DNA of 64,000 nucleotides from Escherichia coli (GTDB lineage Bacteria > Pseudomonadota > Gammaproteobacteria > Enterobacterales > Enterobacteriaceae), in NCBI RefSeq assembly GCF_013122565.1, contig NZ_CP053258.1; one strand, written 5' to 3'. Each line of letters begins with the position of its first letter. Position 1 is the first letter of the stretch. The position numbers and the translations under genes are program-made. The notes beneath the pieces are model-generated. The model did not search any database, had not been told where the DNA came from, and worked only from the letters and a program-made list of their open reading frames with translations. Positions 38,360 through 39,136 of the stretch are shown in pieces.

Positions 38360-39136
38360 AGACTCCCCTCCCGTTTCCCTGTCTCTCAACACACTGTAAA
38401 ACAAATCCGCTTGTTCAGTATGACCGCGTTGCAGCATATAGTTTTGCATGGCAACTAACTGACTTCCGCTAGTGTACCCTTCGTCGATCAGCGTGACCAG
38501 TTGCTCCAGCAATAACATTAAGTCGCGCTGGCGAATATGTTTTTGCAGTAGTTCGAGAATCGCAATCCGCCGATGTTGCATGATTTCGTCATCCGGTGTG
38601 ATGGTGATATCCACCAGCGGGAAAGGACTGTTATAGACGCGTCGTGCCAGCTCCGGCGAGTAAAACATATCAAACCAGCACATTGAGAGCGGATAAGGTG
38701 TGGCCTCGCCCTGATAAAACAGTATCGGCACCACCAGCGGCAGCTTATCGTGATCCGCCTCCAGATGCCGGTGCATGGCAGCAATAGAATAACGCATCAT
38801 GCGAAAGGCCATTTTCTTATCCGGCTTGCTTTGGTGTTCAATCACAACATGCAGATAACCGGGATTGCCCTGCATTTGCACGGAATAGAGCACGTCCGTG
38901 CTGTGTCCTTTCAGGCTCTCTTCAATGAAACTCCCCGACTCTAAATGAAGCGTGTTGAGGTCACAAAGTTCGCGTAATTCCACTGGCAAATGTATCTCCA
39001 GAAAGTCGCGAGCCGTCTCCGCATGCATTAAAAATTGTTTAAATACCGCATCATGCGGTGTGGTACTCGGTGCATCCATCTTCCCTGCCTTCCGTGTTGT
39101 CTTGCGTGAAGGCAGTATCCAGTCAAGGTGTGCCAT
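38207..39136 (-). CDS. rpnC: Recombination-promoting nuclease RpnC (YhgA-like, transposase_31 / PD-(D/E)XK family)
   Basis: 309-aa track ORF; conserved Rpn N-terminal motif TTPHDAVFKQFL and nuclease-like core (VVIEHQSK); sits between panC and panD as yadD does in K-12. Alternative start at Met20 (39079, MDAPSTTPHDAVF). Confidence 0.82.
   Translation of the reverse strand: MAHLDWILPSRKTTRKAGKMDAPSTTPHDAVFKQFLMHAETARDFLEIHLPVELRELCDLNTLHLESGSFIEESLKGHSTDVLYSVQMQGNPGYLHVVIEHQSKPDKKMAFRMMRYSIAAMHRHLEADHDKLPLVVPILFYQGEATPYPLSMCWFDMFYSPELARRVYNSPFPLVDITITPDDEIMQHRRIAILELLQKHIRQRDLMLLLEQLVTLIDEGYTSGSQLVAMQNYMLQRGHTEQADLFYSVLRDRETGGESMMTLAQWFEERGRQEERQEFALRLLNKGMSREDVAEMANLPLAEIDKLIN

Follow-up and report, generated by a model that had tools for sequence, protein, structure and literature searches.

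An inverted repeat at the rpnC start of Escherichia coli appears to straddle a weak promoter and may silence read-through transcripts

We analysed the start of the gene rpnC (yadD) in a 64,000-nucleotide stretch of Escherichia coli DNA (NCBI RefSeq assembly GCF_013122565.1, contig NZ_CP053258.1; the whole stretch is hereafter called the window), where an inverted repeat overlaps the ribosome-binding site of a gene for a PD-(D/E)XK nuclease (Transposase_31, PF04754, E = 2e-87). This repeat appears to straddle the transcription start of a weak sigma-70 promoter, composed of CTGACG, 17 bp, GATACT and a +1 at A 39107. Messenger RNA made from this proximal promoter would begin past the 5' arm of the repeat, lack the hairpin and keep an accessible Shine-Dalgarno (SD) sequence, whereas transcripts from 39254 and from further starts inside the antisense panD gene would carry both arms, bury the SD in a stem of about -14 kcal/mol and be translated inefficiently. 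The hairpin might thus keep the toxic long form of RpnC from being made by read-through or divergent transcription out of the strong panD promoter region. We put forward fold-back silencing of this kind, acting on read-through RNA around a weak promoter dedicated to rpnC, as the likeliest of the explanations considered here, though a tentative one.

Hairpin and probable proximal promoter at the rpnC start

A sequence-only reading of the window had proposed that the rpnC mRNA forms a hairpin hiding the SD of the start codon Met20, and had suggested that this structure controls either the choice between Met20 and an upstream candidate start, Met1, or the translation of a potentially toxic nuclease. 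Our repeat search found a perfect 8-nt inverted repeat exactly where that reading had placed it: the arms occupy 39085-39092 and 39108-39115, separated by 15 nt. On the rpnC (minus) strand it reads CTGCCTTC-ACGCAAGACAACACG-GAAGGCAG, followed by GGAAG and by the ATG at 39079. The 56-nt RNA context of the repeat in the rpnC sense is predicted to fold at -14.4 kcal/mol into 8 bp, a bulged A and 2 further bp (z = -3.14), and an equally stable fold was reached in 2 of 200 dinucleotide shuffles. GGAAGG (39093-39088) lies within the 3' arm, 8 nt before the Met20 ATG, and this arm contains the only decent SD of that start. The features of this region are as follows.

39137..39142, minus strand: -35-like hexamer CTGACG of P2, the proximal rpnC promoter; C.GAC invariant in 13 syntenic loci
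39114..39119, minus strand: -10 hexamer GATACT of P2; invariant in 13/13 loci, with a published transcription start 7 nt downstream
39108..39115, minus strand: 5' arm CTGCCTTC, equal to positions -8 to -1 of the proximal rpnC promoter (discriminator, preceded by the last two bases of the -10 hexamer)
39093..39107, minus strand: 15-nt loop ACGCAAGACAACACG, only 10 nt long once the C-G and G-C pairs inside it have formed; it starts with A 39107, the proximal +1
39085..39092, minus strand: 3' arm GAAGGCAG, holding the SD AAGG (39091-39088) of Met20; the polymorphic base 39088 is G in the window
39077..39079, minus strand: Met20 ATG, the annotated rpnC start, conserved across alleles

The repeat by itself is weak evidence, since such structures abound: counting perfect 8-bp inverted repeats with 3-20 nt loops gives 32 in the 64-kb window and 14.8 +/- 3.7 in its shuffles. 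Its location at the rpnC start is less ordinary: the cost of opening positions -15 to +3 there (13.7 kcal/mol) is the highest among 40 annotated genes of the neighbourhood, the runner-up reaching 11.3 kcal/mol. A scan of 38800-39500 on both strands with Rfam 15 gave no covariance-model match up to E = 10. We also considered the hairpin as an intrinsic terminator and ruled this out by the missing U-run, as a terminator scan of both strands of 38900-39450 found no terminator-like site and no U-tract follows the hairpin.

The evidence for the promoter comes from an alignment of 13 syntenic panD-rpnC intergenic regions from Escherichia species, three Pseudocitrobacter and Salmonella diarizonae, with RpnC proteins 57-96% identical. 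From the panD promoter region to the rpnC ATG the DNA has largely diverged, and two islands are kept in it, C.GAC (CTGACG in the window, 39142-39137) and GATACT(G)C (39119-39112), which are 17 or 18 bp apart in 13/13 regions though the spacer sequence varies. Islands at a fixed spacing of this kind appear to be the signature of a sigma-70 -35/-10 pair. They led us to predict a +1 at A 39107 (K-12 146940), directly after the 5' arm, and this prediction, made from conservation before the transcription start site (TSS) data were seen, coincides with the published TSS 146940(+). The P2 hexamers in the window are identical to those of K-12. As another candidate -35 we tried TTGACT (39126-39121), which was rejected because it lies 1 nt from GATACT and no -10 could be located 17 bp downstream of it.

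TSS reads were those reported for K-12 by Cho et al. 2014 (BMC Biol, PMC3923258, Tables S4, S6), with coordinates converted as window = 39079 - (K-12 - 146968). Four TSSs, all in regions scored as sigma-70-bound in that study, surround the repeat (UTR, untranslated region; CDS, coding sequence).

39107, minus strand (K-12 146940, plus): proximal rpnC TSS; 9 reads, stationary phase; 28-nt 5' UTR without the 5' arm
39254, minus strand (K-12 146793, plus): distal rpnC TSS; 18 reads, three conditions; Cappable-seq score 1.8; 175-nt 5' UTR with the whole hairpin
39293, plus strand (K-12 146754, minus): main panD TSS; 388 reads; TAGACA-17-AATACT upstream
39041, plus strand (K-12 147006, minus): distal panD TSS; 60 reads; inside the rpnC CDS, its transcript running antisense through the rpnC AUG, SD and repeat

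The 51-nt sequence listed for 146940(+) in Table S4 of Cho et al. 2014 (PMC3923258) ends in ...GGATACTGCCTTCA, an end also given as ...CTGACGATAGCGCGCCTTGACTGGATACTGCCTTCA. The distal TSS 146793(+) is common to two independent datasets, that of Cho et al. and Cappable-seq (PMC4782308), and a further rpnC-sense TSS lies upstream at K-12 146640(+) (3 reads; Kim 2012). Cappable-seq also contains a strong internal start at K-12 147583, which is taken to be the antitoxin promoter, and the SMRT-Cappable-seq supplements have no entry for yadD or panD. We infer that the window strain uses the same set of TSSs as K-12.

These starts define two kinds of rpnC mRNA. Both arms are present in transcripts from K-12 146793 and 146640 and absent from the transcript that starts at 146940; because the latter start lies directly after the 5' arm, the proximal mRNA contains neither that arm nor Met1, and its SD is predicted to be open. 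For the window allele, the distal mRNA with its 175-nt leader retains the hairpin in the minimum-energy fold, and the predicted probability that the SD is unpaired is 0.00 in the distal mRNA versus 0.77 in the proximal one, with opening costs of 12.5 versus 4.7 kcal/mol. The claim that the hairpin hides the SD of Met20 is, then, sound for transcripts with both arms and does not apply to the proximal mRNA; only this part of the sequence-only reading is supported. That reading had also named a TSS downstream of the stem as an observation that would speak against it, and this is partly the case: the mapped TSS K-12 146940 is placed directly after the 5' arm. From the predicted folds we infer that the hairpin would lower translation, and by this model it could silence only the longer read-through transcripts.

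Allelic variation and the case against a selected hairpin

The stem varies among E. coli genomes. Among 5,426 complete genomes, about 1,200 records match the window-type 52-mer exactly, 1,612 genomes match the K-12-type 52-mer exactly, and 1,448 differ from the latter at 3 positions, the three sampled from this class being of the O157/E1V33 type. Strains O104:H4 2011C-3493 and E2865 are examples with the perfect, window-type stem. The opening cost of the start region is 7.0 kcal/mol in the K-12 type versus 13.7 kcal/mol in the window allele. E. albertii has a U.G wobble in the hairpin (C->T). In S. diarizonae the same place is occupied by a hairpin of its own, with other arms (GAU.CUGCA/UGCAGGUC). 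Counted manually on the alignment, variable columns within Escherichia amount to 3 of 16 in the arms versus 9 of 15 in the loop.

Several of these and other results weigh against fold-back silencing. The K-12- and O157-type alleles, that is ~3,060 of the 5,426 genomes (~56%), carry G->A at 39088, which gives a C.A mismatch in the sense stem, changes the SD to AAGA and leaves a sense hairpin of only -7.2 kcal/mol. With the K-12 allele the difference between the two mRNAs is nearly gone (opening cost 5.9 kcal/mol distal versus 4.3 proximal). In two further Escherichia lineages the 5' arm is altered without a compensating change in the 3' arm, and the three Pseudocitrobacter alleles lack an equivalent stem. 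Over the whole alignment, 81.6% of cells are paired and 4 pairs are changed on both sides, which is mildly above controls and owes most to distant alleles whose alignment is poor. The conservation of the arms could be explained by their promoter and SD functions alone. In an alignment of the main group of Rpn paralogs, 69 of 500 shuffles scored at least as high as the observed covariation, which thus lacks significance, and the hairpin was not recovered from this paralog alignment by RNAalifold. The proximal start itself is represented by 9 reads in one condition, Cappable-seq (PMC4782308; plus-strand TSSs to ~1.07 Mb) does not contain TSS 146940, and all TSS data come from K-12 rather than from the window strain. 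The RNA end at 39107 could in principle be a processing site instead of a TSS. Finally, a consensus promoter scan that finds the main panD promoter misses P2 of rpnC, which falls below its threshold with 8/12 positions.

These points bear on a first alternative, a hairpin without selected function that arose as a by-product of a separately constrained -10/discriminator and SD, plus chance. It would agree with the ~15 perfect 8-bp inverted repeats per 64 kb expected by chance, with the stem-weakening allele of most E. coli genomes, with stem changes that arose three times independently, and without compensation, among nine Escherichia lineages, with the lack of a stem in Pseudocitrobacter, and with covariation that is weak among the alleles and not significant among the paralogs. 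It accounts less readily for the local z of -3.1 and the first rank of 40 in start-region occlusion, for arms that are less variable than the loop in Escherichia when discriminators are normally weakly constrained, for the hairpin that S. diarizonae has at the same place with different arms, and for the unusually occluded start regions of Rpn paralogs as a group. We consider this alternative rather doubtful. If the hairpin were indeed without effect, the case would illustrate that an SD-masking hairpin that is convincing in DNA may not exist in the main mRNA. For fold-back silencing as for this alternative, the natural intact-stem and broken-stem alleles are ready-made test material.

The rpnC allele of the window is itself rare. 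Compared over 1.6 kb (37800-39400) with the 5,426 E. coli genomes, it has only 3 records of 99% identity or more, most genomes being 90-95% identical. The flanking panD protein is identical despite this rpnC divergence, in line with reports that rpnC is hypervariable and has been acquired repeatedly. Sixty matches to the rpnC 5' region fall on plasmid-labelled records, for example NZ_OZ392440.1 (127 kb), at least one of them also with panD; they could be misassigned chromosomal fragments or real mobilised copies.

Start codon, antisense strand and Rpn paralogs

Around rpnC the window contains panC, rpnC/yadD, panD and yadE, with rpnC at a fixed site between panC and panD. The genes and the second start codon that matter here are listed below.

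36982-37833, plus strand: panC
38207..39079, minus strand: rpnC (yadD) CDS, 290 aa from Met20, with its stop at 38207
39134..39136, minus strand: Met1 ATG, upstream and in frame; allele-specific, with the SD GAGGTG 7 nt upstream; placed between the proximal -35 and -10
39353-39733, plus strand: panD

The choice between Met1 and Met20 proposed in the sequence-only reading would yield two N-terminal isoforms of RpnC, and Met1 is indeed in frame behind a strong SD (GAGGTG, 7-nt spacing) in the window. On the distal transcript of this strain both start regions are predicted to be structured, that of Met1 inside a second hairpin (opening cost 10.7 kcal/mol) and that of Met20 at 12.5 kcal/mol. However, Met1 lies upstream of the proximal TSS and, being located between the -35 and the -10 of the proximal promoter, can only be present on distal transcripts. 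It is also a minority allele: the Met1 ATG was found in at least 481 of the 5,426 genomes, a lower bound obtained with a 52-nt megablast query built such that no seed word can match without the ATG. K-12 and O157 have ATA at this codon, other E. coli or Escherichia species ACG, ACA, ACT or GGC, and the ATG is absent from all other Escherichia species sampled. RefSeq places the rpnC start at Met20 in 9/9 E. coli genomes examined, including the Met1-carrying strain 48, and no CDS is annotated over Met1 in the 12 Met1-carrying genomes among the matches listed. The Transposase_31 domain covers residues 26-226 of the 309-aa long form (~7-207 from Met20), which leaves the 19-aa extension outside it, and Rpn paralogs have just 6-10 residues ahead of their TPHD motif. 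The evidence points to Met20 as the true rpnC start. Judging from the sequence comparison, Met1 appears to be a lineage-specific accident, neither a conserved nor a regulated alternative start, and we regard a hairpin-controlled choice between the two codons as highly improbable.

According to published work, overexpression of RpnC is toxic to the cell and promotes recombination (Kingston et al. 2017, PMC5350276). Long Rpn proteins are DNA endonucleases that are toxic and act against phage; they are reported to be less abundant than the short antitoxins, and 'additional regulation' is suspected (Zhong et al. 2023, PMC10400941). Every rpn gene also yields a short C-terminal antitoxin through an internal promoter and start codon (Zhong et al. 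2023, PMC10400941; Meydan 2019 preprint). Downstream of rpnC, at 37929-38138 on the minus strand, we noticed a 69-aa open reading frame that duplicates the C-terminal tail of RpnC (TLAQWFEE...EIDKLIN), without a Pfam hit and annotated by RefSeq either as 'RpnC/YadD family protein' or as a hypothetical protein. It corresponds to rpnC_Ss, the second, stand-alone copy of the antitoxin described for some E. coli strains by Zhong et al. 2023 (PMC10400941).

Another possibility is that the hairpin acts on the plus strand, as an element of the distal panD leader (TSS 39041), which is antisense to the rpnC start region and contains the repeat at +45 to +75. There it could stabilise that RNA, or its loop could pair with the 5' end of the proximal rpnC mRNA in the manner of RNA-OUT and RNA-IN. 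The distal panD TSS 147006(-), with 60 reads, exceeds both rpnC TSSs (Cho et al. 2014, PMC3923258). Its transcript overlaps the proximal rpnC mRNA by 67 nt (39041-39107), SD and AUG included. If the stem is taken as 8 bp, its 15-nt loop (39093-39107) is a perfect complement of nucleotides 1-15 of that mRNA. The G->A change at 39088 is a U.G wobble on the plus strand, where the panD-sense hairpin stays at -14.3 kcal/mol versus -7.2 in the rpnC sense, and the plus-strand hairpin reaches -9.8 kcal/mol or lower in 7 of 8 Escherichia variants. Yet this strand question depends on just 3-4 independent substitutions, one of which, the C->T of E. albertii, favours the rpnC sense. The missing U-tract after the hairpin speaks against a discrete small RNA, and Rpn paralogs that have no panD neighbour also possess SD-occluding hairpins, more stable in sense than in antisense. 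As the whole explanation a role in the panD leader seems unlikely; it may be a live rival to silencing of read-through transcripts or an additional layer to it.

The distal panD TSS 39041 lies in the most conserved N-terminal coding motif of rpnC. Its promoter (~39000-39035) falls in the codons for VFKQFLMHAE, with a -10, TAAAAAT (39029-39035), that is the reverse complement of the FKQFL codons, and the resulting panD leader is 312 nt long. A separate structure is found in the panD 5' UTR, where a perfect 8-bp hairpin, AAGCAGGC-3 nt-GCCTGCTT, occupies 39304-39322 on the plus strand (+12 to +30 from TSS 39293). The three Pseudocitrobacter species have AAGCTGAT-6 nt-ATCAGCTT instead, equivalent to three compensatory pairs, and the hairpin looks like a conserved structure. 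On the other strand the same sequence lies upstream of the distal rpnC TSS.

Rpn paralogs provide a wider view of such start regions. In 50 non-redundant Rpn 5' regions the median opening cost of the start region is 9.4 kcal/mol, versus 6.1 kcal/mol in 39 control genes (Mann-Whitney p = 1e-5), and the sense folds are more stable than the antisense ones (p = 0.03). In many of them the SD pairs with positions -36 to -25, directly after a conserved hexamer TAnnGT(C), from the position of which the +1 would fall inside the 5' arm in the paralogs as well. These comparisons are suggestive of a tendency of the Rpn family to occluded start regions, and we do not claim a conserved family structure.

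The upstream 50 nt of many paralogs (loci L014-L072) share the arrangement TAnnGTC-nCGTCATC-~12 nt-AGGTGACGGA-5 nt-ATG. In rpnC itself, the minus-strand segment 39121-39150, AGGTGGCTGACGAT(G/A)GC...CCTTGAC, resembles a displaced copy of this paralog initiation region, separated from the TPHD codons by ~54 additional nt; the Met1 ATG of the window is roughly at the expected place of the ancestral ATG. The TPHDAV motif is encoded by a palindrome, ACCGCATGATGCGGT (39045-39059, minus strand; RNA stem of 6 bp, loop of 3 nt), that is seen again in many Rpn paralogs of other genera.

The repeat might instead be a DNA operator, with a dimeric regulator, possibly an Rpn product by analogy with toxin-antitoxin loci that regulate themselves, repressing the proximal promoter from half-sites that flank the +1. 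The repeat covers -8 to +23 of this promoter, its arms are more conserved than its spacer, and residues 273-297 of the long form of RpnC, in the antitoxin tail (38207-38400, minus strand), have a weak, sub-threshold likeness to the resolvase helix-turn-helix domain HTH_7 (E = 0.003; 18.2 bits versus a cutoff of 23.8). Against this, the two half-sites have 23 bp between their centres and are disrupted in the majority of E. coli genomes, no binding of RpnS to DNA is reported in the paper searched (Zhong et al. 2023, PMC10400941), and the pairing in the paralogs depends on G.U, which indicates RNA rather than DNA. We give an operator very little credence, and return to fold-back silencing for the comparison with known systems.

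Comparison with known systems

In the insertion sequences (IS) IS10 and IS50, transcripts arriving from beyond the element fold back and cover the ribosome-binding site, and native transcription begins within the repeat. This fold-back inhibition of outside transcription in IS10/Tn10 and IS50/Tn5 was reportedly worked out by Davis, Simons and Kleckner in 1985, Krebs and Reznikoff in 1986 and Schulz and Reznikoff in 1991. The rpnC repeat has the same layout, with its 3' arm over the ribosome-binding site and its 5' arm upstream of the gene's own TSS, such that the native mRNA is predicted to be translatable and read-through to be folded back. The product is likewise a DNA-cleaving enzyme harmful in excess, and the Pfam label of the Rpn family is 'putative transposase'. 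Unlike these elements, rpnC occupies a fixed chromosomal site (panC-panD); it is no relative of either IS and has no known IS ends, though no search aimed at such ends was made. The source of its read-through would be a fixed neighbour, the panD promoter region, instead of random insertion sites, its stem is weakened in most E. coli alleles, and the effect on translation is a predicted one. We therefore say that the rpnC hairpin may work like the fold-back family and do not call it a member.

The antisense transcript invites a second comparison, with RNA-IN and RNA-OUT of IS10 (PMC4513863). At both loci promoters face each other and the transcripts overlap the SD and AUG, but the overlap is 67 nt for rpnC and panD versus 35 nt in IS10, and the antisense RNA at rpnC is the long leader of the housekeeping gene panD rather than a dedicated small RNA; the likeness is one of geometry. 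A third comparison is with IS200, where a stem-loop in the tnpA 5' UTR sequesters the SD and limits 30S binding, alongside the antisense RNA art200 (PMC4513863). Both loci combine an SD hidden by a hairpin of the 5' UTR with a DNA-processing enzyme that is rarely expressed, and both have a cis-antisense RNA. In contrast to tnpA, where the stem-loop is part of the native mRNA, the proximal TSS of rpnC removes the 5' arm.

The last system is the gene's own. RpnL and RpnS form a toxin-antitoxin pair in which, by the available sections of PMC10400941 and PMC5350276, the long RpnC is the toxin and the short C-terminal product the antitoxin; those sections mention neither the rpnC 5' hairpin, nor the proximal promoter, nor the antisense panD start. 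The ratio of long to short Rpn is ascribed there to unexplained 'additional regulation' (Zhong et al. 2023, PMC10400941, in the same sections). If fold-back silencing is true, the hairpin, the weak promoter and the antisense panD leader would together be a concrete, testable layer of this toxin:antitoxin control, and would explain how a toxin gene can be safe beside the strong panD promoter, 214 bp from the rpnC start codon. A more far-reaching idea, which we find improbable, is that rpn genes keep an IS10-like multi-layer 5' module of transposase-like ancestry. It would consist of a weak promoter of their own that starts transcription inside an SD-masking repeat and so leaves any outside transcription open to fold-back inhibition, a face-to-face antisense promoter in the N-terminal motif and an antisense stem-loop against the 5' end of the toxin mRNA, and it would set the RpnL:RpnS ratio and the antiphage trigger point, with alleles such as 39088 G/A tuning it.

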